A stretch of DNA of 64,000 bases from positions 30,256,001 to 30,320,000 of the forward strand of contig NC_083287.1 in assembly GCF_963506605.1 (NCBI RefSeq). Reading direction: 5' to 3'. The notes under the pieces are model-generated. The model was not told the origin of the DNA. It saw only the letters and a list, made by a program, of their open reading frames with translations, and made no database searches. This stretch comes from Zootoca vivipara (Eukaryota). The translations under genes were made by a program, and so were the position numbers. Shown in pieces: positions 28,684 to 63,430 of the stretch; position 1 is the first letter of the stretch; each line of letters starts with the position of its first letter.

Positions 28684-28686
<3 letters not shown>

Positions 28687-28760: not shown

Positions 28761-28765
<5 letters not shown>

Positions 28766-31643: not shown

Positions 31644-32012
<369 letters not shown>

Positions 32013-35330: not shown

Positions 35331-35450
35331 TAGGAATACATGCAGAGTATCTATGCTCCCTGAGATTAGTTCAGTCATTTTGCACAGATTCACACATTTC
35401 AACATTCATTTCCTATATTATGCAGTTTAAAGTAACCATGCTTAGCATCA

Positions 35451-35690
<240 letters not shown>

Positions 35691-36066: not shown

Positions 36067-36357
36067 CAGAGGTTCTCAAACTGTGGTTCATTGATTATTG
36101 GTGGTCTGTGAGCTCCATTCAGGTGGTCTGCAGAACAGTTGTGCACCAGTCAATAATATCTGTACTTGACCCTGCAGTTAATTATCCCCCCCAAACAATG
36201 GAAAATAAGGGCATTTTGACCAGCACCAGATTACTGAACTGGTTAACAAGGCCCTATCCTAGGGCCTGTGCTGAATAGAAATATTGAAGTGGACTGCTGA
36301 GACCCCCCAGCAATTTTCAAGTGGTCCATGGGGGAGGGGGATGTTTGTGAATCACTG
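36067..36357. mobile_element. Old hAT-like element
   Basis: CAGAGGTTCTCAAAC ... GTTTGTGAATCACTG degenerate TIRs, GTGGTC motifs. Confidence 0.5.
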
Positions 36358-36992
36358 CACAGGTGGTTTTATATCCTGTTCTAAAAATGATTGCAGATAA
36401 ATGTGAATAATGAGTACTGAAAAGGGGTATAACTGGTTAAAAATATTGCTGAATCTTTAATGCTGTATATAGTCATTTGTTGTGCAAACACTTTTTAAAT
36501 CCTTAAAGCAAGGGTGTCTAGCAAGGTGGCTGTGACTAATAAGATGGTTCAAGTATCCTGCTTCAGTGGGAGTAAAATGACAAAGATAAACAGGACTTCC
36601 TTGGTCAGCAGGACTGAATAACCAGGTGGTGATATATTAGCATTTTAAAAACATCTCAAGTCCACAGGAGGACAGCAAGGTCAAATAACTGTGACTATAA
36701 ATAATATAGTTGTTGTTGCTGAGAAAATGGCACTTCTTTACTGCCTTTAGCGAGTAATTTGGATATCGGGATTCAAACCTAACCCTTGTTTCTGATCAAC
36801 TCAATGCTGCAAATTTATTATTTTTAAACAGGCGATTTCTCCCCAACTTTTCCAGGCTTGTTAAACAACCTGTCACTAATTTTTCCTGCATGAATTAAAA
36901 CTGGAATAAAATCATCCTTATAATTTATAACTATGGAATCCATTTTAAACTGTAGACAGAAATTCAAAAGTGGAAAAGGATGGTCACTTTTA

Positions 36993-37157
<165 letters not shown>

Positions 37158-38664: not shown

Positions 38665-38760
<96 letters not shown>

Positions 38761-38890
38761 CTAAACGAACGAAAACCAACAAGTATGATATGGCACCATT
38801 ACTTGCTCTTGTTTTAATCTTATAATGTTAGAACACCATTTAACAGTTATATTGCATATATGTATATTTCACATATGTATCTTCCTAGAG

Positions 38891-39302
38891 CAGGGTTGCC
38901 AATATGGCACCCATGAGCGCAATGGTGCCCTTGAGGTCTGCCCCTGGCACACCCAAAGCCTCTGAGCTCTGCCCCCCCCACTGCCCCCTTCAACAACAGG
39001 TGGTGAGGGTGATTAGCTTTTTCTACCCTGAACAGTAGACAGAACTGAAGAACGATGCTGGAAGAGTAATGCTCTTTCCCACATCCTCTTTCAAGTCTAT
39101 GTGCTTTTTAAGGCTCAGATTAAGGCTACTGGATCCGGTTTGTACTCAGGATCCCTTGGAAAAGTGAAGTCTGTGTGCATGCACTTTATATTTTTCTCAC
39201 TCTCAGAGGTGGGGGTGAGAAGTGACCAGAGTGGGTGGTGCCCCACAATCCTTGCTCAAAAATCCAAATGTGCTCATAGGGGTAAAAGATTGGGGACCTC
39301 TG
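38891..39302. mobile_element. Old hAT-like element
   Basis: CAGGGTTGCCAAT ... ATTGGGGACCTCTG degenerate TIRs; weak TSD TCCTAGAG/CCTTAGAT. Confidence 0.45.
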
Positions 39303-42189
39303 CCTTAGATCAGCCCTAAAATAGGATTAATACTCTTTATTACTGAGGATGCTGTTACTGGGGGGAAAGGGGTTTAGTTTGCAAAGTGAGTTTGTGGCAG
39401 AGGTAACATTTGAACCAGAAGACTTCCTGGTTCACAGCTCAGACAACTAGTCATTTCTAGGCATGACAATAGCTCTCTACAAACAACATGCAAGAGAATT
39501 TCCTTCATATGTTGCTAATAACATTTTCACCACGGAGCACTGTTTTAGATAAATGCACATTTCATTTCTGCATACTGGAGTCACAAATGCATGCTTAGAA
39601 CATAGACTAAATTAAAAACTTACAACCAGCAATAACACAGACCATGTAATATTGGCAGCTTGCAAGCTGTGCTCCTGCCACATCCCCCACTCTCTCTACA
39701 CTGCATCTGCTATATTGAAAATGTGGCTTGCAAAGGCAAGTTGAACCACATGAACAGAAGCAGATGTGAAAAGCTTCAAAACAAAGGAGGCACTTGTTTA
39801 GAAGTGCACAAGTGAAGTGCTTTAGTGCAACTGCAAAATACAGATTCCCAGACAAATAATTAAAGAAAATAAATATTTAGCTCAAGAAAAAGGACAAAAG
39901 GAGTAGATATTGTAGTAAAACTTGCCAAAACGTCAGCCTGTGGGAATGAGAGAAGTCAGATTTGCAGAATAGAGAAGTTGAAGTAAGATACCGTATCTTA
40001 TTCAGAGCTATCCCTAAAGCAAAACCTATTCACTCAGTACCATTCATCAGATTACACTGAGCTTTTTGGTATCAAACACACACCTGATTATCTATACTAT
40101 AAAACTATGGGTTACACCACTTGTCATTTGTGTTAAATGGTAAATGGGTAATATATTTTAAAATGTTAATCATGCATAAGAATTAGAGACATTTCTAAAC
40201 AAACATACAAGAGATTCTAACATTTCAGTGGTTTCACAGACCCAACAATGGACTAGCATGTTCATTGCATGCACAGTAATTCCTTTTACAGCAGAATGGC
40301 TTCTCTCATCCTTACTTGTATTTAATATTCAGAAAGCGCTTGGAAATGCTTGACTATGCACAGAGCAAGTTTGTAATAAATAAAACACTTGCCCTGATTG
40401 AAAATGGGGCATTAAAGTTGCTTCCGGGCAACGTTCTTATCACCACCTTCTCTGAGCTTCCTCTTTTCTTCTGACAGATGCACATTCACAGACCTCAGCT
40501 GTGGTTGTGGTGCATATGAGAGAGACTCCACCCAGACTGGCAGTAGTAGAAGGAAACACAGCAGCAGCATGGCCACTGCAGTATCTTGCTTCCTTCAGAC
40601 AGGGAAAGAAACACCTAGACAAAGGCAACTCAGCCCAGAGGCAGCCATAACAATGCTGTTGCCCCAGCTGGCCAAACAGGCAATATGTTGCATGAGTTTG
40701 CTTACTCACTCTCCTGTGAAAGGGAGCTCACATTCCACAGCACTATCTGACCTTTTTAGCTGGTGATGATAGGGACTGAACATGCAAAGGACGTGCTTTT
40801 TCACTGAGCTATAGTGTCTTCCCATTTAAGTGTCAGAGGATGAAAAGTACAGTACTGCCAATAACGCCCCTTAAAAGCAACCATGTCAAAAGGACCATAA
40901 CCCAAAATTGCTTTAACAAGCAGGTGGAAAACTTGAATTTTCAGATTTAGGAATGCCATAGCTCAAGTTGCTAGCTGGATTTTCAATGAACACAGTGATG
41001 AACTAGAAAAAAAATTGCACCAACTCATTTGATTTTAGCAAATTATGACTGCGTTATAGTAAGATTGAAACTTGAGAGCTTTGAATATCTCCGTCCCCAC
41101 CTCAAGTATTACCTCAGTCTTCTACTCATTTGCCCTATAAATAACTCCAAATTCTATTTTCTCAACACCTATTATGAGGAGGAAAAATGCTACCCACATA
41201 CTTTACTTTTAAAGCTACATTTGAAAGAAACACACAACTATTAAAATGAGCACCAGCAGCTGTTTGGGTACAGTGTACAGCCCTCACTATCTCATGACTG
41301 TTCACTGGGCTTCTCTGATTTTTAAAGCGATAACTGTGCACCTTTAAAAGGCAGCACAACTGCCAGAAAGCCCTTCTATGCCATCCCTTTAATCAGTTTG
41401 GACTTTTGTTCAAGCAGCAACCTGTACTATGGGCGCAGATCTGTTCCATCACTCCAAACATCTAGCCCCACACTTTTTACACAGTCCAGAAAACAGTGAA
41501 ATATAGCTGATGACTGTGCATGAGCCCACATAAGAGAAAATGGAAAAGTTGTGAAGTGTTTCATGGATAGCAACTTGTGCATAGCAGATTGCAGGTACAT
41601 GCACATAACCCTGCAACTATTTGCTAGGGAATAACTAGTACTTCAGCCCTTCTCCATGTGAAAGTCTACCCTGCACTAAGCCACAGTTTAGTGTAACATG
41701 TGAAAAGCAGGTTTTTTTTTTACAAAATATTAATAGCTAATTTATGCATGATGTCCTCTTTATCTTCTACTACAATTTCTCATGTTCTACTGTGCACAAT
41801 AATTGAGTGCTGGTCATGAAATGTAGCTTTTTAAACATTCTCTCTTATAAAATAAGGTGCAAATGAGCTGAAAACTTTTTTAAAAGAAATCCACTTTTTT
41901 TTGTTAAGAACCAAAATTACAACTATAACTAAGATGCTGGTCCTGCAATATATTCATATTGACTGCTACCTGGTGCATGTGTCAAGGCTACAGAATTTTG
42001 AAGATTTTGATCTCCAAAGTAGGAAAAAAACCTGCAACTGTAGACGAATTGTAACATTCTTAAAAACGCTGTAACATGTGCATATGGACAAACTTTAAAA
42101 GCCCATGTCTTTACTTGCACCACTTGAAAAGAAACTGTACACATGGAAGGTTTGAATGACATGTTATGAAGACGCATAATGAAACCAGA

Positions 42190-42300
42190 CTGCTGAAGCT
42201 AAGCAGGCCTGGATCTGAAAAGTGCCTGGATGGAAGGCTGCCTGGGAATCCCAGATGCACCACCTTGAGTTCCATGATAGAGGAAACGGACAATATAAAC
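42190..42300 (+). mobile_element. 5S rRNA-derived SINE-like fragment
   Basis: GAAGCTAAGCAGG..CTG....GTGCCTGGATGGAAGGCTGCCTGGGAATCC aligns by eye to the 5S internal control region, followed by a non-5S L2-like tail. Confidence 0.6.
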
Positions 42301-43579
42301 AGTACTGAATAAATGTCCACGTTCCGTTTTCTTAGAAGCTACTTCAGCCACTCACCTGTGGAGTACTAAATGTTGCCTCTAGGTGAATAATGAAGCTTGA
42401 AAAGTTTTGTCCACTCAAAAGGGAGATGGCTTTCCCAACACATTCATAATGCTATTTGTGCCATAAAGTATTAAAACACAGATATGACATCAGATGGAAC
42501 CATTTTTTAAAAAGGGCTAATTATCTCTTGCAAGACTGCCAGTCGGACTTCCAAAGGTGAGACATGCATGTTGTCACACCGTACAACCTGATCAGCAGGG
42601 CAACCAAAATCTGTACTCAAGAAGCATTTGTGGATTTGCTCCTTTCTAATGTTTTTAATTTAATTGGCTGGCTTTTTTTACTTTATGAACCCTTATTTGA
42701 TTTTATATTGTTTTATTGTTTATGATTATTATAGGGATTAGTTATCTATTGTGATTTTATTGTTATGCACCGTACATTTATGTAACAATAGAATAATAAC
42801 TAAATAAACAGTCTCATTAAAAAACTGATGTCACTTAGCAGTATAGACTTGGGCAATATGTAGTCACTGAGCAATGAAAATGCACCTAAAAAGCACTTTT
42901 TTAAGTAGTAAAAAAGCACACAGAAAAGCAAAAAAAAAGTCATACTGCACCTAAAATACCAACTTATTTATTTTGGCATATGCTTTATTATGACAGCAAT
43001 CAAAATTTTAAGTATTATATTTTCCCAATGCTTCTCCAAGCAGTTAGTGGTAAGATATAATTACATCCAAAACTCAACATGAAGCAATGAAATCTCACCT
43101 GCATACAACTTTTGGAAATAAATGTTCTTTTCCCTGCAAGTGACTCTGTAGGCAATATTTTTAGTACACCTTAATTAAAATTTGTGACAACCTTCAGGCG
43201 CTAGATAAGATCATGCTGCAAGTCATATCTGGGTTGCAGGTTACCATCTGGATATCAAGTCTGAAGAATGAAAAGCACTTTATTTGCTTTCAAAATAAGA
43301 AACTGCTAAAAGGTGCCAAATTCTACACTTTGGATTTGGTCATTTGAGAACAAAATTATTTAACTGCTTTGAAAACAGGCAATTTTGAACTGCAGCTTAA
43401 TTTTCCTAAGTCTTGTGAGCCTATTTTATCCATTAAAACAGATTAAATACCACAGCAGTTAGTTTTAATTTGGTCTCTGTCATGTTATTTTAGTGCTGTA
43501 GTACTAAAGTGATGTCCATAATCGTGGTAAAAACATCAGATTGGTAGTTTTATGTCCTTGCTCAAAGTTTATCAAACAG

Positions 43580-43813
43580 TTACAGACGCTTCAGGTTGCG
43601 CGTTTTCAGGTTACGCACCGCACTGAACCCGGTAGTACCGGAACGGGTTACTTCTGGGTTTCGGCGCTCGCACACAACCACTAAATCGCGCTTTGCGCAT
43701 AAGTGCCTAATTGTGACCCGCGCATGCACAGATGCGTCACTGCGGGTTGCAAATGCTGCAGGTTGCAAATGTGCCTCCTGCACAGGTCACGTTCACAACC
43801 CGAGCGTCCACAG
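43580..43813. mobile_element. Tigger/pogo-type MITE lacking its left TIR
   Basis: Right end AACCCGAGCGTCCACAG|TA, CpG-rich body with GGTTGC repeats; the left end is replaced by a 43-bp copy of sequence also found at 46984. Confidence 0.7.
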
Positions 43814-46628
43814 TATTCTGTGTATTTTCAACACATGGATTAGCTGGGACTAGCCATTAACTAGGTGGTTGGAAGGCACAAGACCAATCATGATCATTTT
43901 GAAGAGTGGATGGGTTTCTTACATACAGAATTCTGGTCTTGAGATAAACTGATTTTGGTCTAATACAGTTTATCCATCCCTAACAAAAGTGTTGAGAAGC
44001 AGCTGGGCCCAACACATTTTACCACCAGAAATGAAGGACAAGACAGGCAGGGGAAGAATATACAGAAATCAACTGAACTAGCCATTTAATCTCACTTAAA
44101 CACTGATGAGAGGACAGTGTCCTCCACTGCCCTTAAGGCAGCAGGCTAGTAAACTGTGTTACACAGTTGTTTTCCAACAGAGGAATATCCCTGGGAGGCT
44201 GCCACTCTGTGCCCCACATGGACTAGCATGTGGCCCCCTGAGGCAGCAGCCAATACTCTTTTGCTTACTGCTAGGATAGTTCCTGGTTGAGAATCCAAAA
44301 TTTGAGAATCCAATTTTTAGAGAATCTAAATGAGAATCTAAAAATCGTGAATCACAAACAGAATACAAGAGCCCATGAAGATTTTTGTGTGCAATTTAAA
44401 CAAGTGCCAAGACTAAGACCTTAAAGGGTTCCATGCCCATTATTTTTAAAAAATGAAAATTATTCAGCTACATAGGAAGCTGCCCATGGATGGGTGCTGT
44501 TCCTGCTGCTGCCTTTTATTAATGGTATGGGGGTCTGTGACTACTGGTTTTGTTCTAAAAAGCCACCTTAAGAGGATTTTATTTTATTTTTACCTTACAG
44601 GCAGCTTGCAAACTTTTTAAGAATAAAAATTAATAAAAACCAGGACAGACCGTTTGCCCATCTATCCCAGATTTGTCTACTCTGATTCACAGCAACCCTC
44701 TGGAACAGATGTATGTAGCTAATGTGACGCTTACCAGATGTTGCTGGACTACAATTCCCATCAACCCTAACCACTGGACATGCTTGCTGGGAGTGATTGC
44801 ATTGTGAGTCAAACAATGTCTGGAGGGCACCATGCTCTAGCTCTAGGATACAGGTAGCCAATATAGTGGTCTCATGATATGGACCAACTCCCATTAGCCT
44901 CAGCCAACACAGCCAATGTTTAATGATGAGAGCTGCAGTCCAACATCATCTGGAAGGTGCCACATTGGTCATTCCTGCTCTAGGGACTCTGGCAAAGGTT
45001 TTTCTATCTTTTTCTACTCAATCCTTTTAACTGGAGATGTCAATAGACTAAACCTAGAACTTTTTGCATTCAGAGCACGTGCTCCACTTCTTGGGATATG
45101 GCCTTCCTCCATACTCTGAATTGACACTCAGAACTGAACTAGTTCACTATGTTTTTCAGTAGTAATGCAGTAATTATAACCCAGATATACTATTAAACGG
45201 AGCTAACCATTAGTTAATGGAAAACATTATTTCACCCCAAGTTGGTAATAATTGATTGTATTCCTCTTACATAATAGTGCCTAAAACCATATATCTAGCA
45301 AGTCTAACCATTCCATTATTGCAGAATGGCTCTCAGTATTTCCAATACTCCCAGCTACTATTATGTCAATCAATAGCCAGATCTTGATGTAGAGTCAGAC
45401 CAATGCATTAATAAGGACGGCATGAAAGACTCCAACAAATTGAAAAATAGGTCAAAGTGACCATGTTCCCTAAAGCTCCAAGTTAAATCAATAGAATTTG
45501 AGGTAATCCAACTGTACATGTTGAGGTCTTGCTAGGCCATTTAACAGACAAAGAACGACAGTACCACCAGTTTGCAAAACAGATACAATGCAATTACAAT
45601 ATTAGAATTACTATGACAATTCACCAGTGACAGAACTTAAGCTGAAAATTTAAATATCAACTCCAAAAATCATTTCACATCTTTCCTCAAATCTGTTCTA
45701 TGCAATCCAAAGGAGGGCATCTGTTCCACTGAATAATTTGGAATAATCACAGAGATAAAAAAATTATTCACCTTCTACAAACTACCACTACTGTTCACCT
45801 GGAGTATCACACTCAGCAAGGTATTTTTATTATTATCATTCGTTCATTGTGTGGTACCCAATGCACTCTTTCTGTAAGCGCAAGATATAAGTTTGCACAG
45901 TTCAAGTTCCCCACCCCATGTCAACTTTGAAGAGTTGAGGGAACTCCCAAAACAGATTTAGGGGGCAGGGCACCTGAGAGTGGGAGAGGAAGTTTAGCAC
46001 AGCTAAAAGTCCTTGCACTGATGGAACAATTGAGTTGAATACCACTCACTATTTTTATATTCCATCTTTCCTCCAATCAGGAGCACAAAGCAGCTAACAC
46101 TAAAAATTAAACCATACAGTGATAAAATAATCAAAACCATAAAATCTCAATACAAAACAGTAAACTCTGCAGCAAGGGGACCACACCTAATCATCTGAAT
46201 GACTGGACAAATAAAAATATATTCAGCGACAATTTCTACTCTAATGGCAGATTGAACATCCCCTGGGAGGGAGTTTAATAGCTTGGGTGTCTCATTATCC
46301 TAGTTAGCACACTAAAGCTGCAGTTATTTAACCACCATGTGCTGCCAAATATATGTGTTTAACATGGGGATTCAAGAACCCAACACCAGCTTAGAAGATC
46401 AGGCTGCCTTTAACTTTCCTGTATTTAAGGGGAAATTCCAGCTTTCCAGCAAGGCATTGAGCAGCGTAGTAAAAAGAGCTTACCAACTTCCCATCTTAGT
46501 TAAGTTATTATAACCCTGTACTCTGTTTTCCCATTCATAACACACAGGAAAAGTACAGAAGAATCATATACACTGCTATAGGGTATGGAAAGCTGACTAC
46601 AGATCTGAGGGGAGAGAAAAAGGCATTA

Positions 46629-46894
46629 CAGTGGTGCCTCACTTAACGAATGCCCTGCTTAAAGAAATTTTCGCTTAACGAAAGGTTTTTTCTAGCGGAG
46701 GTTGCCTCGCTAGACGAATTCGTTTTCGTCTAGCGAATCGCGGTTTCCCATAGGAATGCATTGAAATTCAATTAATGCGTTCCTATGGGCAAAAAAAAAA
46801 GCAATGCATTCCTATGGGATTCGCTAGACGAATTTTTTTCGTTATAAGAAAAGACCCGTGGAACGAATTAAATTCGTCTAGCGAGGCACCACTG
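46629..46894. mobile_element. Tigger/pogo-type MITE
   Basis: TA|CAGTGGTGCCTC ... GAGGCACCACTG|TA, with internal inverted CGTCTAGCG/CGCTAGACG repeats. Confidence 0.9.
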
Positions 46895-48519
46895 TATCTT
46901 AATTGTTTTATATTCAGAAGAACCTTAAAGCAAAGTACAAGACAGAATAAGATAGCATTATACTTTCAAAAATCAACAGGGACCAGATTGGTAGTTTTAT
47001 GTCCTTGCTCAAAGGTTTATCAAACAGGCCAAGCATATCCTTCTGGGAATGCCTGTTGGGGAAAAAATGTCATTAAAAGGCACTGAAATGCCAAGATAGC
47101 CAGTGCCTGTCTAATATCCACTGGAAGGGAATTCCTACAACAGTGGGAGTGGTACACTAATTAATTACCTAATTAATTATGTATGTAGGAAGTATGTAGG
47201 AAGGTAAGACACTCTCTCAAGTACCCTGATCCCAAGTTCTTTTAAAGAACAATATGAAAACCTTAAATCTGACCCAGTAGCATGTTGGCAGTCAGTGCAG
47301 ATCCCAGTGCAGAGTAGGTGTTACGTGCTGCTGACAAGTCACCAGTTTGTAGTGTAGATGCACTACTTTATTTATTTATGAACAACTGTGGCCCTAGCTG
47401 GAAAAAGGCACTCTTGGCTACTGATAACATCTGGGCCTCTGGTGAAAAGGATGGATCCAGGAGTATTCTGATTACAGAGCTCCTCCTTCTAAATGTGTGC
47501 AACACTATCTAGATCAGGAAACTAACCTGAACATGGGAACTTCTCACCTACAGTGCCTCCATCTTGTCAAATTGATAACCTGCAGCTGTTCTTTTCCCTG
47601 GGACTTACTTGGTCCAGGATTTTGTCTTCAATTAAACACTCCAGCTCAAAGCCACACTAAAAGAGCCAGCCTGTCCAGATATTAGACTCAACATCTGAAG
47701 CAAGGAAGAGTCACTGCTAGAGAACAAAACTCGTTTCCTGAAAGAGCAGGCTGAAGCACCTATCTTGTCCCAGTGCCGATTTCTAGAGGTACTGCAAGCC
47801 CATAAAAAGCAGCATAAGAACAAAAAGAAAAGAAAAATCAAACTGGAACAGAAGACAGGAAATGTACTGGTGGGCCTCTAGAATGGATGCACATTAGTGA
47901 CAGCTGCTTTTTGGACTTTCACGTTTCCATAGTATTTGAAAAGAAGACTAAATATAAGGTTCTGAATCCCTCCTGTATACCTAACCTACTCATGACTCAA
48001 ATTTAAAAAGCTTCATTAATAAAGCTGTCCTGCTCCAAGCAACCTACAATTATTTCAGAAGCCTCAGCCCCTTGCAAATAACATGCAGATGGTATTCTGT
48101 ATATCAGAGCTCACCAGTGATTTATAAGCTAAAGAGGCCAAATGCCCTAGCTCTGCTGCAGTAGAGGGGAAATACCATCTTGCACATGGCTGTTCAGAAC
48201 CTTATGACCTTTCCAAATGGACCCTAAAATAAAAGACAGATCGCTGCCCTGAGGAACTCCCAACCTAAGCCTGGACTGTTGGGTAATAAGGAAAAAGAGA
48301 AGTTGAACATGGCAGGGGTCTGTGAAGTGGAGGCAAGGGTGAACTAGAGAGATGTTTCTATTACGGAATATTACAATATGAAGCAGAGTATGTTCCCTCA
48401 GCTTCTATTTTGCTTCTTCTCTTACCTATCCCTCAACCAACTCATCCACAGTGTTTTTAGGTACCAGAACTGGCTATGTATTGCACATATTATTTGAAAT
48501 GAATGACACACAACAGTTA

Positions 48520-48720
<201 letters not shown>

Positions 48721-49477
48721 TTATATGCAACATAGTTAATGTGGTGTTTTTAGCTATTCACATCTATTTTTAGTGTGGCAACTTGCACAAAAGGCCTTTT
48801 AAAACTGAAAATATTTGCCTTAAGAACAAAAAAACCAAGCCTCTCAACAGTTGAGGTACATGTGACCAATGCCAAGTGTTCTGTAACTAGAGGTAATATG
48901 CACAACTGTTACAACCAGACTACACTGAAGGTAAACTCAGGAAAGAGCATTTGTGAGATTTTCTCTCACTTACTCTTCCATCTTTCGATCCCACCATGTA
49001 TAAATCCAAGGCTTGATATTCTGCATTTTGAAAACTGATGGCAATCTACATTTTCTTGGGGGGGACACCAGAAGGCCACATGCTACCTTTAAGACCAATA
49101 TTTATTATGATAGGTAAGGCTGAAAACCTAATTTCACCTTCTTGGAAGTTAAGCCCCACTGAATAGGACTTCTGAGCAGACATGGTTAGGGCTGCACTGT
49201 AAGAGTTTATTTCATTGTATGTGCAGACACAGAGTGCTAGACAAAAAGCTATTATATTAAGAAAATACAACTAACGTTAGAGCTGTGGAAGCTACTGTAC
49301 ACTATTCCAGTTAGATCACTTCTCATTGTTTTACCTTGCATTTTCTTAACAGATTCTGAGCCTCATGTGACAATGACAACTTGAATATAACATCTGATTA
49401 TGGGGACAATGTATCCCATGAAGTCCCATCTCCATGTCCTGAACTCTCAAATAGCAGAAAGGGAGGGGAAGCTAGAT

Positions 49478-49722
49478 CATCATTTCTCAACCGCTGTTCC
49501 GCGGCGACGAGAAGGGCAATTTGCATTGTCACGTGCCTGGCGGCCGCCAATGCACAACACTAACCCATCAGAAAGCAATATTTGGCAAGTGTTTCTTACA
49601 GTCATAATTATAATATAGGGCGGCACAGAGTTAATTTTTTAAACTTTTTAAATGGTGGTGTGCCTCGTGATTTTTTTCACGGAACAAGTGTGCCGTGTCC
49701 CAAAAAAGGTTGAGAAACACTG
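49478..49722. mobile_element. hAT non-autonomous element (245 bp)
   Basis: Perfect 8-bp TSD AGCTAGAT; TIRs CATCATTTCTCAACC / GGTTGAGAAACACTG. Confidence 0.88.
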
Positions 49723-50039
49723 AGCTAGATCATTTGGAGAACCTGCAACTTTCTACCTTCAAAGTTGTTATTAATCATTCATTTCTACACTGCAAATTCA
49801 TAAAAAGATATCCAAGTAGTATACAGAATCTCAATTAAAACCAATCAATAATATCAACATATATAAAAGAATCTGAAATATAAAAATAGATGTTCTAACA
49901 AGATAATGAAAACAATAAATTATTTCCCTAAGGCTTGCTAAAATAACAAAGTCTTTAAGTTGGCACTTGGAGCTCATTACAGAAAATGCCAACTTGCTCT
50001 CATTAGGTACAGAATTCCTTAACTCACACATAATGCACA

Positions 50040-51840
50040 AGTTATTGCCGAGGACAGTCTAGCACTGCCAGGCACCGTCAGACATGCCTCTGTGGCAAAT
50101 TACAAAGATCAGGCAGGGGTGTAAGGAATAAGGCCATATTTTAAACACAATGCCAAAGATTGCTTAGAGGTGTATATAATAATGGGATGCTGAAAATAAC
50201 TTGGCTGCCAGTGCAGCTCCCACATAAGTGCAGGGTAGCATGCCCAGTAACAACCCGGCTGCAGAATTCTGTGTCAGCTACTGCTTCCAAACCTGCTCCA
50301 AGGGCAGCCCCACATAGAGTGTATTATAGTAGTCTGTTCTTGGTTATCAATGCTTGAACCACCATAACCAAGCTATCCTGATTCAGGAACAGCCACAGCT
50401 AATGCACATGCTGAAGCTGGCGAAAGGCATTCCTAGCTACTGAGGCAACCTGAGTCTCAAGGGACAAAGCTGGGTCCAGGAGTACCTCCAGACTGCATGC
50501 CTGCTCAGAGGGAGTGCAAGAACAGGCAAATGGTCTCGTATCTCAGACACAGAAACCACTCATCAGCCATGCTTCCACCTTGCCAGGATTTCAACTCAAT
50601 TTACTGGCCCTCATCTAGCCCACCACAGCATTCAGGTACCAGTCCATGCTTTGCACAACCTCACCTGACTCAGATGTTATAGAGAAACACGAGATGGTTG
50701 GTTTTGGCATATAGGTGACATCCTGCTCCCAACCTCTTAACAACTACTCCCAACAGCTTCGTATGTTTAATAGCATCGGGGATAATATAGCGCCCTGTGG
50801 CACCCTATAAAACAAGTGCCAGAGAGCCAAAATGCACTCCCCTTATGCTATCCTTCGTAACCAACCTTGTAGGCAAGATTGGAACCACTGTAAAACAATG
50901 GCCCCCAATATCCTTTCCTTGGAGGCAGTCCAGAAGGACATCTAGTTGATGCCATCAGAAGCTGCTGAGAGATCAAAAAGTAGTAACAGGGTTGCACTCC
51001 TCTATCCCAAGAAAGGTACAGTAATCCACTAGGGCAGGGGTTTCCAACAAAATTTTCTCGAGGACCCCTCATTGAGCCGCTATTGTGACAAGGACCCCCA
51101 TTAATTCCTAATCCTAAAATTAAAAAGTGAGAGCCAAATTAAGAGTCTTTTTACATTTTATATTTTTAACCAACGGTCCATTTTTAACTACGCGAACTGT
51201 AGCTTCCGCGAAAAACAACGCTTTATTTACAAACACTACTGTTTTGCAAAGAGGCAGCGCTCACCAGGGAGGAGGGAGGGGAATGGAGAAGACAGGGTAC
51301 CTGCGCAGTAGCGCACAAATGAAGCCGACGCGCGCAAAGCATCTTGGGGAGGTGAGCGTTAGTAGAATGCGTGCGCTGCCTCTTTGCAAAACAGTAGTGT
51401 TTGTAAAGCGCCACCTAACAGCATACAGCAGAACTACTGCCTCTATCTAATTCTAGTTTTGCGCTAGACTCTGCTCATGCAGGAAGCGGCCAAAACAAAA
51501 AATCTGTTATCATACGTAATATATTAAATATATTTTTTATTCTAATAGCATCTTGCGGACCCCTCTGGCATAGCTCGCGGACCCCTGGGGGTCCGTGGAC
51601 CACCTGTTGGGAACCACTGCACTAGGGCATCCAAGGTCAAACTCAATTCTGTTCCAAAACTGGGCCTAGATAATCAGTCTCTTCCAAGAGTACCTGCACT
51701 TGTGCCAACACCTTCTCTCAACTCCTTTGCCCTAGAGAGGGTATTTGTGACTACATGATAATCATTAAAAGCCAATGGGTCCAGCATGGGTTTCTTTAGG
51801 AGAGGACACTTTCAGCCAGGCAAATAAACTGCACCCAATC
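50040..51840 (-). mobile_element. L2 LINE ORF2 remnant (split by the 51035 hAT)
   Basis: Reverse strand at ~50301-50335 encodes DYYNTLYVGLP (L2 DYCN motif), followed by LQNSA-like remnants. Confidence 0.7.
51035..51619. mobile_element. hAT non-autonomous element (585 bp) inserted in an L2 fragment
   Basis: Perfect TSD CACTAGGG; TIRs CAGGGGTTTCCAACA / TGTTGGGAACCACTG; subterminal GGACCCC repeats. Confidence 0.9.
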
Positions 51841-52608
51841 ACTCATACCTCCTCTACTAGCTTTTATGAACCAAGGTGGACAAGAATTAATAGGGTGATT
51901 TCAATGATATTTTTTTCAAAATGAAAGAGCATAATAGCCTTTCTTAAGTATTTTTTAAAAGTTACGTTAGTCAAATATACTACAGCAGGATTTCTAAACT
52001 CAAGGTTCAAAAGTAATAATGTTAGCAGTGGTAGCATTGTTACTAGATTACTAAGTAAGGTATTCAAGCTACACTATTATGATTCAATGTCGGTAAAACC
52101 GCTTTCAGAAGTTACGGAATATACAACCACTTTATTGTATTTGGATCAAATAGTTAGTGTGACACATATTGCTCCTGCAATGAGGTTGCAAGGCTTTTAG
52201 ACAAGCAAACAAAATACCTCCTGCTTGTCTCTTGCCACAGATCCCTTCATTCTCTGCATCAAGTGAAAACTGATGAATGTTTAAAGACAATACAAACTAA
52301 TATGAATGTTTGAATGGCCACTGGAAAGAAAGGCTTTTCAAAGGGGGCAATAAAACTGTGAAATTCAAACTGTTTCCCCATTTCCCCATAGGTGCCAGTT
52401 AATGCCTATTCTGCTGCCATGGTTTCAAGTGTCGTCTGTAATGCTATTATGAAGCTAAAACAAAAGTTCAAAATGAGAAGCTATGGTTCTTTCAGGCATC
52501 AATTCCAATAACATTACTATTTTTGAATATATATTATTTACTGATATGGAACAGGACATAAATAAATATGGTTCAATATAAACAATTTCCTGGTTTTTTA
52601 TAATTTTA

Positions 52609-53198
52609 CTAGCTGGCCCTGCCACGTGTTGCTGTGGCTCAGTCTGTTAAATGGAGACTCAGAGTCCCCCTTCAGACTCCCCTCACCTTCAGAGTCCCCC
52701 TGTTTTATGCGTGTTCTGTTTACGCAGGCGCATCCCTATGACTCCCCCCACCCTGTGCTGATCCATGATGTATCCCGCCCCCTCCTCCCCCCACCCCCGG
52801 CTCATCCCTGTGACTGGTCCCAACGTGTCCTGACCTATCCCGTCCCCTCCTCCCCCCAACCCCCACCCAGGTGAGTCAGTACCTCCATCCGGCCTAGTCT
52901 GTAAAGGCTTCGGCCTAGTATGTAAACTGGAGCAGAGGTGGTGTTGAGAGGGATGGTTTTATAGGTGCAATACCAGTGTAGCCACCGCTAGAGGGCACTG
53001 GTTTGCAACCTGGTTCTTTTCCCAGCATGCCCGGCAGTTTCTGCTGGGGTGTCATCTGTGCACGCAAATGGTATGTGGACACTCGGTTATTCGCATGTGA
53101 CGCTGTGTCCAAATTTCATTGGCATTGGTCAAGCGGTTTTGGTGAGAGGTGGAGACCAAACAACATGCCCCTTTTACATTTTTATATATACTGTATAG
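52609..53198 (-). mobile_element. Non-autonomous Helitron (590 bp)
   Basis: On - strand: A|TC 5' end (TCTATACAGTATATATAAAA), 3' hairpin GCCACAGCAACACGTGGC ~8 nt before terminal CTAG|T; no TSD. Confidence 0.85.
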
Positions 53199-53762
53199 AT
53201 GTTGTATGCTGCTTTAGATTTTTACTATAAAGTGGCACATAAATAAAAAGCTAAGTTTACTGCCCTAGATTGAACATCACAGAAAGGCAAACTATGGTTT
53301 GAGCCCCTCGATAAGACAGATATGCCATGATGAGTAAAATACAGTATATGTTGAGCTTTCAGGAGGGAGGAAAGAAGCAAAGCACACCTCCCTTTTCCAC
53401 TAGTCTTTTCCCTCCCTCTACTCTGCACCCCTTATTAGTGTGCATGCACACACAATGTCCTTTAGTGCCATATAATACAGCCAGCAAAGGTTTCAGGAGG
53501 CTTGGAGGCTGCTCCTGAAATCTCCCTTATGAACTCTGTTCTAGGATAGATGAAACCTGAACAGCAGTGCTCTTTTAAGAAGTCATGGATACACTGCAAC
53601 ATTTTGTTGCAGATCCCCAGTTGTGATATATGTAACATCCAAATGTATTACTGCTCCTTCATTTACATTCTGGCAGAATTTATTTCCCAAGCTCAAAAAG
53701 ACAAGTTTCTTCAAAGTCTACATATAATTTTAAGACCAAATAATAAAACCTTCCTTTGTATA

Positions 53763-54908
53763 CCGTGTTTCTCACATTTTAAGACGTGCCTATAAAATAA
53801 GCCATGGCACGATTTTCTGGAGGCAATAAAATATAAGGCATCCCCCAAAAATAAGACATGCTGGGGTACCGTATTGTTAGTGGTGGGAGCAGGTCTGCAT
53901 GGCGCTTCTGCAGCGCGCGCCTCGTCGAGCGCTGCTATCTCTCCCGGGTCCCGCTCAGTCGGGACTCAGTGCGGTGCGTGCTGCTGTCTTTGCCAGGTCT
54001 AGCGGGAGGCCCCACCATCCCCACGCGGCGCGGCGTCCCTGCGGGTGCTGCCTCAGGAGCAGCGAAGCCATGGCGACCCTCCCGCCCCGCAGGCACCCCG
54101 ACGCTCCCAGCGCAGCCATGGCGCGGCGACCCGGAACTGGTCCCGCAAGCGCTTCCGGGTCGCAGCGCCTCGGGTTTCTAAGGAAACACAATCCGGAAGC
54201 GGAGTTTGACCAATCCGCTCTAGGCTCCGATGGGGCAGCAGCCTCTATACTTGTGCCATAGAGAGCGCGCCGGCTTGAAGCTCTGGTGCTGGTTTGTTGG
54301 CTCTGCTTTTGAGTCCACCCGCACCCAGCACTGCGGAGCTTGGTTTGCGTGCAAAAAGCAACAGCGCCGAAGGAGATGCGAAGGTGGGAGCCTGGGAGGG
54401 GGAGAAAGCCACCCCGAGATAGGCACCCCGTTCTGGTTTAGCAAGATTTATTGCAATGACAGCTCAAGGCAGCACAAACGCTGCCCTGTGAGTTTTAAGA
54501 GTAGTGGCTGGGCAAAGCCCCTCCAGCTGCTGCTGTTTTTAATGTCTTGAGTGGGTTTTTGAGTGCGCCTCCTGGGGCGAAGTCAAACTGCTGGGGTAGC
54601 AGAACAGTCAGGACCTCCAAGGTGCAAGCCTGGGCCGCATGTATGGAGATCCCGGGCTGCCCAGGTGACAGTACCACCCTCGCGGCCTCTCTGATGTCAC
54701 AGCGCCGAGTCCCGACCCAGCGGGAGCCGGCAAGGGCAGAAGCGTGTGCTGCACCGACCCCGACCCAGCAAAACTCTCTGAAAGCTTAATACCGGTAAAA
54801 AATTAAAAAGCTTAACAAAAAAATAAGACATCCCTGAAAATAAGCCGTGGTGTGTTTTTTTGGAGGAAAAATAAATATAAGACATGTCTTAAAATGTGAG
54901 AAACACGG
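53763..54908. mobile_element. 1146-bp pogo/Tigger-type non-autonomous TIR element with GC-rich cargo
   Basis: Perfect 23-bp TIR CCGTGTTTCTCACATTTTAAGAC, TA TSDs (53761-62, 54909-10), subterminal AAAATAAGMC repeats, no transposase. Confidence 0.9.
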
Positions 54909-56210
54909 TACCACAATGTTGAATTTTCTTTTTAAAATTCTTCCTCCTCCTCCACCCCCACAATATTTTCCCAAAGGGCAAGAACAAATGCATGTTCGAG
55001 ATCTTTAGATGCAAGCTTGCAGCTTTATCTCTAATACTATTTTTAACTGATTTCCATTTAATTTTTTTGTACTTTTTTGTATGTTTATGTACTAAGCTAT
55101 AAGCGATATTCACAGAACATTGTCATGACTCTTGAAACCAGAATTCCCATATACAGCTAAAGTACTGAACACATGAGCTTTCCAGACTTTACTGGGGTCA
55201 TGTAGCTGGCACTCTTGCCTTTAAAAAAAAAAGAGCAAACAAAACTAGGAAAGATTTCGACTACTGAGCAACTATTGGTGAAGATAAGATTACATGACCC
55301 CATGACTGCTAATGAATGCTTGGATTACAGCCCAAACCAGATCATATTCAAGAACATTACACTTTTTTGTAGAATACACAATTAAGCTCAACTTTTATTG
55401 AATGTATTTTCTCTCTGGAGCTAAAATAGACTTCAGTACCTTAATAGCTTAACACCACTCAAATGAAGTTAAAAAAGAAAAGTAAGCTTCATCTCAGTTA
55501 TAGGAGGAACTTAGTAAACTGTACTAGTCTGGGTTCCTGACAGTATTTTACAGTTGTACGCAGATATGTAACAACTTTAAAGTTTTAAACTTCAAAAATC
55601 AAAGTTAAATTACTTGCAAAACTGAGTTATGACTAAACTTGCCTGTCATTTCAAGAAGATGGAAAGTATTTTGTACAATCTGCTAAGCAACTACATATCA
55701 CTGTTACTTATGAAATAAAAAAATCATATAGGTATTTATCCAGATAAATTACAAATAAAGATTTAAGCTGATGCACCCTAAGTAGCATTCCCACATTTTA
55801 TTTTATTTTGCACACTGGCAAATCAGAATACCAGTTGAAGACCTTCAATTAATTACAGGGATGGAATAAGCAACTGGGAAATTCCACCACAGCAGTAACA
55901 GCACAAGATTTATAAACCCTGGTACTTTATGGTAGCTTCTTGTTCACTGAAGCTGAACCTCAGCTGTTTAGCAATTGTCCTGAGGAGGGGGAAGTGCTTA
56001 GAAAACTGCCTTGAGAACTCTGATAAAAGGAAATAGTAATAATTGAACTTTAACTGCTAATCTATCCCTGAACATGAGCTATATAGCATAGATAGAATGT
56101 TTGCATCTCCCTGCCTTAACATATACAGTAGTGTCTGGGTGTGGGAAGATTTGGCCTCAAGGATAGGAACCTCATGGCACACTGAATAATTGGAGAGAAC
56201 ACCCTTAAGT

Positions 56211-56596
56211 CATGGGTAAGTAAACTAAGGCCCGGGGGCCGGATTCGGCCCAATCGCCTTCTAATCTGGCCCGCGGAGGGTCCAGGAATCAGCGTGTTTT
56301 TGCATGAGTAGAATGTGTCCTTTTACTTAAAATGCATCTCTGGGTTATTTGAGGGACATAGGAAGGCAGCCCTGTTTAGGGAGGCTTTTAATGCTTAATA
56401 GATTATTTTATTTCACTTTTCTGTTGGAAGCCGCCCAGAGTGGCTGGGGAAACCCAGCCAGATGGGCGAGGTATAAATAATAAATTATTATTATTATTAT
56501 TTGTTCATTCCCCCCCCTCCAAAATATAGTCCGCCCCTCCCAAAGGCCTGAGGGAAAATGGACCGGCCCCCTGCTGAAAAAGTTTGCTGACCCCTG
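56211..56596. mobile_element. hAT MITE carrying a nested L2-type 3' end (~56361-56500)
   Basis: TSD CCTTAAGT/CCTTAAGC, GGCCCG subterminal motifs; internal GCCGCCCAGAGTGGCTGGGG...(ATT)n tail. Confidence 0.8.
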
Positions 56597-59500
56597 CCTT
56601 AAGCACTTGTGGAGTGAGGCAGGGTGGGGAGGAAAGAGAAGGGGACACAAATTATGAGCGCTTAAGCTTTTTGGTCTGAGTAGGTCCCAGTTTCTCATCT
56701 CCTTGATGCTTCTTGTATTCAACACCTCCCAGAGAACATCGAATATGTGCAGCATACTTTGTGTCCTCTTTAGGGTTTTCAGTTTAGTATTAATTCAGAC
56801 ATATGCTTTTAAAAGTTTTTATCCAAGATACTCTTAGCATAAAGTTAAAAAAGTTAAAGGACGTCTGGACAATTACGTCCAGTCAAATTCGACTACGAGG
56901 TGTGGCGGTAATCTCCGCTTTCATACACACCCAACAACATGACCAAAATAATTCAGAAAGGTTGCTCTACAGAAAGAAGATACAGCTTAAATGAACGATG
57001 ACAACTCTAAGTAAGATGTTGAAAAGGACATCTTTTAGCCACAGATAAAATGCTTATTTGTAGAAGCATTTATGTGACAAGTGGAGTGTTCATTTGCATA
57101 AATCAACATGTTGTCTATCTGATGTCAGAACAGGCACAAATTCTACATGTAAAGGCATTGACATGAAGCATGCAACATATGCTGGTGGATGCATGGAACC
57201 GTCACAAAATACTTTACTCATAGCCACCATAATGTCTGTTTTGGTTCCACACTTTCACAGAAGCCAGGATTCTGAGAGCTACAATCTGCTAAGCAACTAC
57301 ATACCATTATTACTTACGAAATACAAACAATATCATTCAGAAAGAAGATGATAAACGAGCACATTATCCACAACAGTAGTGTAAACACAAGAATAAAATG
57401 TCTTCCTAAATAATGTTTTTCAATATCTGTCTAAAACAGGAAGCTTGTTGAACTTTTGAGAAAGTGTCCTGTAACTGCAGTGCCACCATCAAGAAGGTCC
57501 TGACTCTGTAATTTCCACTAAAGACGAGCCAGAGAGCAAATGTTTTGGGGGGACATGCGTAAAGTTGGGCCAGAAGCAACCTGTTTCAAACCAAACCATT
57601 CTGAACATGTGAGATCTTATTCTCAATATTAGTTTAGTGCGCCATCACAATGCAGTCATAAAAAGTTAGCTTTTCAGCTAAGTGTCCAGGGCATCACCAA
57701 AGGGAGTTATTGAGAGCAGTGAGATCTCATATATGAGGTTTTTCTACACACTATGGAAGAAAAACACAACTTGATATGTGATGGTGCAAGGCACAAGTAC
57801 ACTGAGCATGCCAACAGAAGCACCTGATGCATTAGTACTCTTATTTGAAACAAATGTATGTGTATAACCAGTAAATAAATCAAACCAAACATGAAAGCCA
57901 TGAACTTAAGCTATCAGTTTTCACAATGTTTTATGACATAGGTCAACTGCCCTTCACCTTTAAGAAAACAGGTCTAGTTAACTTTATCTTGTATTTATGC
58001 CAATGTAGCCCAAGATAATTTATTCCCAGCAGTAGGAGGAGGAAGGAGCAAGCTCTAGGCCTCAGAATATAGTCAAAGGCTACTTGAACTTGTTAACAAA
58101 AGCATTTAAAGATTAAATTCACTGTCCATAACACTTTGAGGCTTGTAAGAAAACATCTGCATCCATTTTAAATTACAGACAATGGCCAGGCCTCATCCAA
58201 ATAATTTGCCAGAGATTATACATTTTAAATTATAATTTAAACTATGCTTAATTTATTGTATATTTATCTTGATTTTGTAATAGGAAACCTCCAGGAGTAA
58301 ATTTAGAAATCATGCATTCACAGAAGGACAGTTTAAATATTTTTTTAAACAAGTGAATTCACATTTACTGTATATTAGTTTTAAAAGGGCCCTATTAGAA
58401 TGTAAAATGTGGATTATGTAATTGAAATGCATTAGTTTTATTACAGAGCAGCAAGCATTTCTCCCAAATAAAACACTATGACTGTTTTATTTGGTTAGCT
58501 AATATTTTAACACAGTGGCATTCAAGTAACCAAATGCTGTTCAGTCACCACTATTTTCCAGTACAACTTTTTGCACTGGGTTAATTCACATACGTATTAT
58601 TCATTTTTCATATAACCATGGCTTTCAGTAAAACAAATGCTTGCTTATTTAGCGTATTTATAAACCACCCTTCATACAAATATATCCCAAGATGGTTGTA
58701 AGACATCTGTTTTTATCTCCAAAAATGCAACAAGGAAACAGTTTTTTAAAATATAATGGAAAGGGGGGGGGACTGCAAAACGTCAGTTTTAGTAAAACAT
58801 CAGATGCTGTAGTACTCCAAATAAATATGCACAAAACCCAAAGCATGCAATGACTATTACGTTTTAAAATGTAGGTGGCTGAAGATCATAAATATGTGGA
58901 AAGAAAGAAAATGCATTTTTGTAGAAAAACAACAACCCTGTTCTACAAATTTAAGCTCTAAAGATTGGCCTGGCTTGATTCTATTTTAAACCAGAATTAA
59001 CGTTATGTTTTTTAAAACCAACATTTTAGATCATCCTTAAGCTGCAAAAGGGGGAAGGATGATGGAAGGGGAAAAAACCCAGAGGAAGCTGTTTTCATTC
59101 ATGCAGTAGTGATGTCAGCGTCTGCAGTGGCAGCTGCCTGACCTGTACAAGCTTCCAACCCAGAGCACTTTTGCAGATTTCTTTTAAGAACCTCTGGGAG
59201 CTCATTTTTACTAAAGAACTTAAATCTGAGCAATGTCCTTTAAACATCTACACTGTAAGAAAGTGAAAGACATACCTTTGTATACAAATATATATACATA
59301 TCCTAGAATTGCTCCAGTACAAACTGAATAATGCAACTCATTTGCAAAGCCAGAGCCATGCATTGCAGTATAAACACTAATGCACAGAGAAAACAAGATA
59401 CGTTTAGGTGTGACATAAAACAATCTGAAGTATGGTATCTATGAAACATATTTATTATTCTTTCATGCTCTTTGCAAATTGCTAAAATAAATAACTGAAT

Positions 59501-59769
59501 AATTAGATTAATTAATGATTGAAGCTAGATTAATTGATTCTGCTACAAAGGAGTTTTCCACAAAGCAACCAAGTTCTCTGAAGTTATTCCATAATGCAGG
59601 CTGCCATGCTAATTATAGGTACTACATGGGCCAGAGTCACAACAACTGGTGAAACTAGTCCACGGGGCAGATTCTGCAGGCTAAGAATTTGAAAGTAAAA
59701 CTAAATATTTTATTTATTAGCTTGCAGAATTAAATAAGGCTTGTTCTGCTATCTAAGATGAGTGATGCC

Positions 59770-59985
59770 ATAGACCCTAAAAGGCATCGAAACCTAGTGG
59801 AACTTTAATGGCTAAGAAATTGATTATGGCATAAATCTTTTGTGGACCACTGTCTGTTACATCAGATACAAATGTGGATTGTGGTCCATAAAACTTACGT
59901 CATAGTAAAGTTAGATGCCTCAATACCTTGGTTTTTTGTTTGTTTTTTGCTGCAACAGGCTAACATAGCTTTCCTTCTAGAAATT
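59770..59985. mobile_element. Old degenerate Penelope-like inverted terminal fragment
   Basis: Decayed version of the same architecture (GCATAAATCTTTTGTGGACC...CATCAGAT...GGTCCATAAAACTTA...CAGGCTAACATAGCT). Confidence 0.55.
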
Positions 59986-62099
59986 TAAAAATTATGAAAT
60001 GAATTAATTCAAATATTCAGTATGTGGGCATATTTTCGTTTGTTCGGGATTTACTGGAGGGTGCCTGCTTTGAAATGCTAGCTCAACTAATGAGGATTTC
60101 CTTATGGTACATGCAGGTTAACAGTTCACTGCGGTCAATCCAGTTATATATTGCACTCTCACAACTCTATTAAGCAGTGGGTGCTGCTATGATGGCTTAA
60201 GGCAGGCTCAAACAAGTTTAATGAAGTCATTCAGTTGTAACTTAAGAGGACTGAATCATTGAAAGTAAGGCAGCAACATAATTCATCTATTTAAAGAGAT
60301 TATATTATTTTAAAATACTTTAAGATAAAAGAATAAGCTGTTTAGTATTTGTTCACAAACATAGCACATTTAAATGCAGATTCAAACATGCAGTATTTGT
60401 TATCAGTTTTCCATTTTTGTTTTATATTAGCAAGCAAACAGAAATGTTTGAATTTGCTTAATTAGAATTGTATGCACTTGTCTTGTCCCCATAAAAGGAG
60501 AAGGCTTACATTTTCTAGACCCAATAACATGGATTAAACTCCATTTTTACAAAAGACTTGGTTTAGAAACACTTAATTCCATAAGGGTTTCCATAAGGAT
60601 GAATCAAGATCATAGGCCTGTTGCATAACATACGTATAATTTGAAATGCATGGGGGGAATTAAATTTCATCTAGATGTACACGTTTTTAAGGCTGATATA
60701 ATATAAGCAACATTTTGGAGGAGTTACAATCCAAATAACCATAACTGCACAACTAAGTGCAAGGATTCATGGCAATAATGCATCCAACTTGCTGCATTCA
60801 ATACTATATCAAGAGTGGTATTTAATTTGCTGCTGAAACCAAACTCAGTCTTGGCATAATTAAAGAAGTGCTTAAAGATACAGGTTTCTCTATAGAAGGA
60901 TAAGCAGTGTATTTCATATGATTCATTCAACTGCTTAAGGGGAGTGGACACAGCCACTTTTTAAAGAAACTTTTTCAAATATGCTTGGAGGGAACTTTTC
61001 CTATTACATTATATTCTTTAACAAGAATATCATAGAATGTGCATTCTACCTGCCGCCAGGGTTCAATAAGGTTTAATTTTAGCTCTACAAAGGGTTGTAT
61101 TTGAGGGAGAGGGTTTTTTGAAGGCTTTTTGAGTAGACTGCAGGCAAAATCCTAGAGATGGTTTGTGCATTATATATCTTGGAAATATTGCAGAAGTGGC
61201 ACGGGTGTTGAATTCTATTTAGAACCTGCAGTTTTGCTAGCATGTGCTTGCTTAAGTCAGATGTTTTTTATCTCTTCCTGGTAAAAGGGTACAGGAATAC
61301 TTTTACAAACACTGCTGTTTTGCAAATCTTATGGTCTTGGTGGAGAGTGCTAGTATCTCTGTGCTTCGGCTTCCCTGAAGGCAGACATCTCAGAACTTAT
61401 GCTTCAATAACCTATTGAAGCATTTAAATGTAAGTTGGCCAATATGGAACCATCCTTTAGCTCAGCCTTTAGGCACTAAACCAGATGAAAATTTCCATAC
61501 AAGGCATGGATACAGCATGCTGCAACGCAAGCATTGAAAAACACTCTTCTAACCCCATTTAAAAAGGTGGTTAAAATAAACTTCATTAAACAGAATTCTG
61601 CTTCAGGGCACAAGCCAGTCTAGCATTCTATTCACACATATAAAATGCAGTTTAGGTTTCTCGTTTAGTAGCTCTGCATTAATAGAGCTTGGGAGTTCCA
61701 CTCTCTCCTTTAAGGATATGGAAGAAGGCTCACTTTACCAAGGATTGCAAGGTAGAATTTTATAGCCCTTCAGCAGCCTAAACCGCCAGGAGTAGGCTAT
61801 TGCAGAGTAGATGCAGGGTGTTAAAAGGGGTCACTAACCAAGACTGCCCCGTTTCAAGCTCGAGTTGAATTAAGACCTTGAGTCTTAACATTTAGGGTGG
61901 TGTGTTGTTGGGGTTTTTATTATTATTTTTTTAGGGCTGAGTCACTTCGCCTTCTTTCAGGGTCGGCGATCGTATTCACACTTACCTGGGGATGAGGCCC
62001 GCACTGAAAAGACGGGAAGATACTTCCGAGCATACCCTTGACAGAAATGTGCTGCTAGATCGGGGAGGTGTTGCCATAATCCGAAACATTAACATTTAA

Positions 62100-63430
<1,331 letters not shown>

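Follow-up and report, generated by a model that had tools for sequence, protein, structure and literature searches.

Gene Capture by Transposons

In animals, the capture of genes by cut-and-paste transposons had been regarded as rare and mostly single-copy. In the accessible part of the survey by Tan et al. (2021), 370 Pack-TIRs are reported in 100 animal genomes, four of them multicopy, with three copies in the multicopy example described and none in the one lizard covered, the anole (PMC8277862). There, host DNA lies between TIR arms, the parent is on another chromosome and the target sites are distinct; in parallel, junctions show short overlaps, the cargo is GC-rich in the multicopy cases, and the repetitive arms are proposed to trigger template switching (FoSTeST). 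The family described here resembles these elements in these respects, with short overlaps at some of its junctions, but differs from them, as far as the accessible text goes, in at least five gene-start captures at 8-34 copies, a two-gene chimera, and open-frame transposases in the same genome (PMC8277862). Bat Helitrons, in the accessible part of Thomas et al. 2014, share with it a bias towards promoters, 5' UTRs, first exons and introns, as well as sequential capture and amplification; they are rolling-circle elements devoid of TIRs and TA duplications and reach thousands of copies, whereas the present family is a cut-and-paste pogo one (PMC4224331). Rice Pack-MULEs are also similar, according to the sections available, in their GC-rich, broadly expressed and lowly methylated parents in open chromatin, in unlinked insertion, and in the methylation of unexpressed copies; they are Mutator elements of plants, whose TIRs are long and whose duplications measure 8-11 bp, whereas here 23-bp TIRs, TA duplications and vertebrate CpG islands are involved (PMC5861414). 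Finally, Passer elements of the pogo type are given in partly accessible sources as 1.6-4 kb long and present in reptiles (PMC7386202, PMC9976928).

The locus considered here lies in a stretch of 64,000 nucleotides, the window (G000:C12:30256001-30320000), within a 1.44-Gb genome that was searched as a whole. A first-pass annotation of the window had proposed that a young pogo-type element carries the captured promoter and gene start of a host gene. The best explanation, which we regard as highly probable, is that a non-autonomous pogo-type cut-and-paste transposon, into which the promoter and gene start of MRPS22 had been copied at the DNA level, inserted here after the split from a related species (organism B), and that this copy is likely carried along methylated and silent, without serving as an alternative promoter. 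By the features tested, the family is a serial, multicopy Pack-TIR: transposon arms with TIRs stand on both sides of the interior; between them lies host DNA of non-TE origin, whose parent can be identified and is unlinked to the TIR element; several copies occupy distinct target sites with the parent distant; and the orthologous site in organism B is empty, holding no cargo-free element. The single window copy is probably inert, and it is the family that constitutes the finding, a lineage with Pack-MULE-like serial capture and amplification in a vertebrate. Such a scale of gene-start capture is apparently unreported for this transposon class in vertebrates; a literature search outside most subscription papers and the repeat databases returned no serially capturing cut-and-paste family in squamates and no Passer cargo, and the family may be present in Repbase or Dfam without its captures noted. 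Since donors, empty backbones, deletion series, chimeras and open-frame transposases are found in one genome, the capture mechanism becomes directly testable.

Structure of the Element and Its Host Gene

The element spans 53763-54908 and consists of the following parts, listed together with its host gene:

53761..53762, no strand: left TA target-site duplication (the empty site in organism B joins 53760 to 54909, minus 1148 bases)
53763..53785, plus: left 23-bp TIR (end match to the right TIR 23/23)
53786..54005, plus: left arm, AT-rich subterminal repeats followed by GC-rich backbone repeat units (common to empty copies of 459-617 bp and to the 5' region of the autonomous element L226)
54006..54697, minus: captured MRPS22 DNA comprising promoter, 5' UTR and part of exon 1 (donor G000:C5:33747778-33748393)
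54007..54119, minus: first 38 codons of MRPS22, without the native splice donor (alignment to donor)
53955..54119, minus: chimeric 54-aa frame running from the MRPS22 N-terminus into the transposon arm, where it stops (translation)
54131..54214, no strand: ETS-type cores at 54131, 54153 and 54193 and CCAAT at 54210 of the MRPS22 promoter (motif positions)
54561..54690, no strand: fragment of an old interspersed repeat captured along with the MRPS22 upstream DNA (17 scored places, 76-81% identity over query 539/557-685; also present at the donor)
54698..54885, plus: right arm, inverted GC-rich repeat units followed by AT-rich subterminal repeats (last 92 bases 93.5% identical to autonomous L226)
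54886..54908, minus: right 23-bp TIR (end match to the left TIR 23/23)
54909..54910, no strand: right TA target-site duplication (sequence; empty site in organism B)
22244..62800, minus: host FAM117-family gene (element in intron 1, cargo in the host's sense)

Most of what had been annotated from the letters of this stretch was borne out. The TIRs are identical at 23 of 23 bases, with the first mismatch at base 24, and TA is present on both sides; CCGGAA at 54131 and 54193, TTCCGG at 54153 and CCAAT at 54210 are in place; and the minus-strand frame from the ATG at 54119 yields the peptide proposed, which is 54 aa long and ends at a stop codon at 53955-53957. The interior, said to be about 900 bp of CpG-rich DNA, is indeed CpG-rich (53880-54780: GC 0.63 and CpG o/e 0.74, vs 0.42/0.28 and 0.38/0.31 in the flanks), but the host cargo accounts for only about 690 bp. 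The GC-rich remainder, together with the degenerate inverted repeat that had also been noticed (53930-53976 / 54698-54744, 74% identity), is made of the transposon's own GC-rich repeat units, which empty copies also have, as do autonomous elements in their 5' region.

The placement in intron 1, in the host's sense, likewise stands. Five Pfam FAM117 exon matches lie on the minus strand between 22244 and 48720, and a GT donor near 62250 closes the first coding exon, which places the element in intron 1 of a FAM117-family gene, putatively GLCCI1 as named in the first-pass annotation. Weak sub-cut-off Pfam matches in the flanks (HRG, Dimerisation, GASA, Synaptobrevin, VitD-bind, Atrophin, PRC2_EED_ins) were set aside as chance.

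MRPS22 as the Donor of the Cargo

A genome search with the whole element returned full-length copies and one match over the interior only. When the interior alone was used, 23 long matches were obtained (40 of 983 candidates scored), while the other scored candidates matched only the 130-bp old repeat, the promoter part being absent from all of them. Among the long matches, 22 have both TIRs and one, at C5:33747778-33748393 and thus on another chromosome than the window, has no TIR within 30 kb. All 22 copies have distinct flanks at different TA sites and none lies on C5, the contig of the donor. The first-pass annotation had named this pattern, a single TIR-free match at the 5' end of a gene accompanied by multicopy TIR-flanked matches, as evidence of the capture of a host promoter and gene start, and it had anticipated a nuclear gene for a mitochondrial protein. 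The gene is MRPS22: the donor frame runs on to a GTGAGT splice donor, and further exons match Pfam MRP-S22 (E 2.7e-13 to 2.6e-22). In the RNA run X21, 22 reads diverge from the window at 54006 and continue into the remaining donor exon 1 and exon 2; this joining of exons indicates that the donor is an expressed, spliced MRPS22 gene.

The cargo contains about 500 bp of upstream DNA, followed by the start region, where read depth runs out near 54160, and by 38 codons; the capture ends 19-20 nt short of the native MRPS22 splice donor. By their position and composition (6 R/K and 1 D/E in 44 donor residues), the captured codons are likely part of the mitochondrial presequence; a Pfam search of this region gave no match. 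The present donor allele is without four short segments kept in the copies (16, 4, 26 and 16 bp), and 54185-54200, which holds the third ETS core, is missing from it. A single-copy contig of organism B spans 54172-54313 gap-free and includes the first two of these segments, which were thus deleted later in the donor; the other two were presumably lost in the same way. The Pack copies therefore keep an older state of the MRPS22 promoter than the allele of today (L023:1680-2110, G000:C5:33.748 Mb).

Insertion and Age

The check for an empty site, suggested along with the original annotation, found one. In organism B, one contig joins 53199-53760 to 54909-55800, minus the element and one TA (depth 11.4), with 55 of 1454 flank bases different from the window. 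Depth over the cargo is at flank level, as for single-copy DNA, and depth over the left arm is zero. Together, the empty site, the single-copy cargo and the missing left arm place both insertion and amplification after that split. In a DNA run of organism A, which may be the source of the assembly, both flanks lead into the TIR, and the joins listed include none for an empty site.

The description of the element as young holds in a relative sense only. Substitutions relative to the donor affect 25 of 611 aligned bases of the window copy (4.1%); it arose early and does not belong to the youngest members of the family. A 14-copy clade is much younger.

The TIR Family and Its Sister Captures

The exact TIR end of the subfamily to which the window element belongs occurs 154 times in the genome and that of the wider family 3585 times, the latter mostly as a 235-bp AT-rich MITE (11 of 12 sampled). 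TA is present on both sides in 78 of 83 distinct elements examined, a sample that is enriched for MRPS22 copies (seven loci gave no TIR pair); the set includes empty backbones of 459-617 bp. Five captures account for 92 elements, with MRPS22 in 22, TRIM24 in 28, RAB7A in 8, and MYB and/or SRRD/HPS4 in 34; in the searches for the cargos other than MRPS22 all candidates were scored. Each of these four sister cargos has one TIR-free donor in a CpG island with no family TIR in 30 kb, and the MYB donor has one unrelated TIR-like end 12 kb off.

The TRIM24 cargo comprises the promoter and the whole exon 1 with its splice donor, and the 17 copies fetched have both TIRs; its donor encodes RING, B-box, PHD and bromodomain and is closest to TIF1-alpha, at 80 bits vs 60 for TRIM33. 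The RAB7A cargo consists of the non-coding exon 1 and the start of the intron. The MYB cargo, assigned to MYB rather than MYBL1 from a PDB match, is the intron-1 island and is present in 31 copies, and the SRRD cargo is exon 1 at the head-to-head SRRD/HPS4 promoter, in 33 copies. The last two occur together in 30 elements, a MYB+SRRD chimera.

Several further observations were made on members of the family and on the neighbourhood of the donors. Type-E elements (L050, L052, L087, L099, L255-L284) have a minisatellite and an AT-rich interior, in at least 40 copies; no TIR-free donor was found among 40 of 72 candidates scored, all 40 having element arms, and this interior may be transposon-internal. 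A sister subfamily (L234-L254, 21 exact ends) has a 41-bp GC tandem backbone with two interiors, one GC-rich and one AT-rich. At L108 (G000:C9:50.567-50.574 Mb), a MYB+SRRD Pack element contains a nested LTR retrotransposon whose gag/pol-like frames are long. Approximately 10 kb from the RAB7A island, a Ribophorin I-like exon (L153:3893-4426, sub-cut-off) is arranged head-to-head with it. In L160:1981-2069 (G000:C19:46786980-46787068), RAB7A exon 1, ending near its splice donor, is joined to an unrelated element; the frame that follows looks similar to a LINE ORF1, and this is probably a second, splice-based capture of the same exon.

Overlap of Donors with CpG Islands

Six of the seven located donors overlap CpG island windows, vs 17 of 527 background windows (3%) drawn from gene-near loci and the window. 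The binomial P for 6/7 is below 1e-5 even at a background of 10%, and with three unplaced interiors counted as misses (6/10) it is 1.5e-4 at the same background; these statistics are based on small numbers, and captures need not be independent. The one remaining located capture is ordinary DNA (GC 0.45, o/e 0.22; donor C1:77.618 Mb), and three internal segments, two of them AT-rich, have no placed donor, so that the island bias is no rule.

The bias might also arise from amplification rather than from acquisition, captures being random and promoter-like cargo staying accessible and hence transposing more. We consider this possible but rather unlikely: elements with the AT-rich type-E interior are no fewer (every one of the 40 candidates scored, out of 72, has element arms), most of the wider family (11 of 12 sampled) consists of the 235-bp AT-rich MITE, and the decay of CpGs in the copies, described below, implies that they did not stay open. 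In its favour, amplified captures are the only ones seen, one non-island capture exists, and bat Helitrons with promoter cargo reach higher copy numbers in the accessible text (PMC4224331).

Activity of the Window Copy

Private CpG transitions in the copies amount to 126/6692, vs 73/18595 at other C/G positions, an excess of 4.8-fold when pooled that is significant per cargo (3.1-8.6). An excess of CpG transitions is a signature of germline methylation. Differences between donor and copy majority number 8/538 at CpG vs 16/1544 at other C/G, and the polarised CpG loss is 5.8 per MRPS22 copy vs 1.1 in the opposite direction. Unlike a functional CpG-island promoter, the copies show no protection from CpG decay, methylation being read here from the sequence, and of the 44 CpGs in the donor, 7 are gone from the window copy, which has no gains; such decay records germline history averaged over copies rather than the present state of the window copy in each tissue. 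The family thereby provides a natural experiment, with five housekeeping/developmental islands placed at 8-33 new sites each, on whether island sequence alone blocks methylation, and the observed decay says that island sequence flanked by transposon arms mostly does not protect itself.

RNA was drawn from two runs of one study, of which about 6% was read, with donor depths of 22 and 3-4 reads and hence low sensitivity. The window copy carries A at 54014 and T at 54071. None of 25 reads has its letter at the first position (22/22 and 3/3 with the other letter) and none of 24 at the second (20/20 and 4/4); most other copies carry the letters seen in RNA, and the loose ends at 54006 identify the X21 reads as donor mRNA. 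In the part read, neither run shows transcripts crossing from cargo to arm, the left-arm depth being 0.02-0.04 and that over 53191-53578 being 0. A few X22 reads further upstream in the cargo, at a depth under 1, are of ambiguous copy origin. Over 54840-54936, many RNA reads across the right TIR continue into varied other flanks, which indicates that family members lie inside transcripts elsewhere.

The first-pass annotation had suggested that the capture could give GLCCI1 an alternative first exon. This proposal is unsupported, because the native donor was not captured, the chimeric frame stops in the arm, CpGs have decayed, and the reads over the cargo are spliced MRPS22 mRNA. In particular, the stop at 53955 would turn the frame into an upstream ORF. 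The cargo does lie in the host's sense, with all three ETS cores, the CCAAT and the Kozak ATG retained, two 7-of-9 donor-like sites follow downstream (53775 and 53666), and chimeric Pack-TIR transcripts are reported for other species in the accessible part of the survey (PMC8277862). Nevertheless, retained motifs are expected at the age of this copy even without selection, and with 7/44 CpGs lost and 0/25 and 0/24 reads carrying its letters we hold a working intronic promoter or first exon to be very unlikely. Among the copies, the chimeric frame varies from 34 to more than 100 aa and two have frameshifts, as expected in the absence of selection. The window copy is likely methylated and silent.

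Mechanism and Direction of Capture

DNA-level capture, distant donors, repeated transposition, a deletion series and a chimera are all observed. The cargos contain upstream promoter DNA and introns, and capture was therefore from DNA. Among the junctions that could be read, overlaps of only 2-4 nt are found at five cargo ends and one internal truncation, with none or short filler elsewhere; these are raw lengths, some of them read by eye from the alignment. A route through RNA, by splicing or retroposition into the element, exists in this genome, as a different element holds RAB7A exon 1 cut at its donor, but is hardly credible for the present cargos. They include about 500 bp upstream of the MRPS22 start as well as intron sequence from RAB7A, TRIM24 and MYB, and their breakpoints do not coincide with splice sites; this refutes an RNA route, barring upstream starts and intron retention that are unannotated in the donors. 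The reverse direction, in which the interior would be transposon sequence adopted by MRPS22 as a promoter, can be dismissed as next to impossible despite the four short segments missing from the donor allele and a cargo tree that gives no supported root placing the donor outside the copies (2/20 inner branches supported, and not used for direction or order). A conserved gene has its spliced first exon encoded in this interior, and the 30 kb around the donor are free of TIRs. In organism B, moreover, the sequence is present at single-copy depth, including the segments that were checked, while the left arm is absent; the same pattern recurs at four other conserved genes.

Capture from DNA may be envisaged as follows. 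The GC-rich backbone units, direct and inverted, would form hairpins that lead to breaks or stalled replication; repair would then switch template to an accessible CpG island, copy 0.2-1.1 kb and return to the other arm over an overlap of 0-4 nt. A Passer-type transposase acting in trans would multiply the product, later deletions and joins between Pack elements would generate sub-lineages and the MYB+SRRD chimera, and the host would methylate the dispersed islands, which would then decay. As far as the available texts show, this scheme matches the FoSTeST model for multicopy Pack-TIRs (PMC8277862), and the switch to accessible islands matches the open-chromatin acquisition of Pack-MULEs (PMC5861414).

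Partner Transposases

A DDE_1 search gave 96 matches, of which 45 loci were examined. A group of these loci has open frames of 431-527 aa and TIRs of the window family, and the annotation as pogo-type is thereby upheld, DD35D transposases with matching ends being present in the genome. L226 shares 85% and 93% identity with the window element over its ends, and the GC-rich repeat units recur in its 5' region, which accounts for both the backbone of the window element and its degenerate inverted repeat. The exact subfamily TIR was found on no autonomous element among the 45 of 96 matches examined, L226 being the nearest. Two further elements, L219 and L220, are 99.97% identical over 3465 bp.

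The partner proteins have DDE_1 and HTH_Tnp_Tc5 domains and DD35D, with a 35-residue spacing in L220, and the elements have a TA duplication and a TIR under 30 bp, as Passer does in the accessible parts of its descriptions (PMC7386202, PMC9976928). By domains and DD35D, a motif that Fot also has, they would thus follow the Passer-type pattern. No host cargo is described for Passer elements in those parts, unlike in the window family (PMC7386202, PMC9976928), and the Brk DNA-binding motif is absent from the Pfam matches of L220 and L226 at E 0.001.

L219 and L220, the youngest autonomous pair, carry two captured host pieces 5' of the transposase. In L220, a 186-bp piece of a CCP1-like gene's island (96.8%) is joined to 487 bp of ordinary C1 DNA (98.2%). 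In this pair, a G-to-T change makes CAG|GT, a putative splice donor, in the CCP1-like piece; it is absent from the donor and from the older L287/L288. A broader picture can be drawn from these data, namely a still-mobile lineage that routinely samples CpG-island promoters, spreads dozens of them through the genome and also adds captured DNA to its own transposase gene (the CCP1-like piece with a new GT upstream of the transposase), some of the 92 elements being active or acting in trans on MRPS22, TRIM24, RAB7A, MYB and SRRD/HPS4; we consider it speculative and, taken as a whole, unlikely.

The captured pieces lie at L220:821-1494 (G000:C3:42.028 Mb) and in L219, with donors at L290 (C11:7573250-7573426) and L289 (C1:77618366-77618838). 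Many other DDE_1 loci (L189-L218) have long open frames without the family TIR and are possibly domesticated pogo genes or members of other families.
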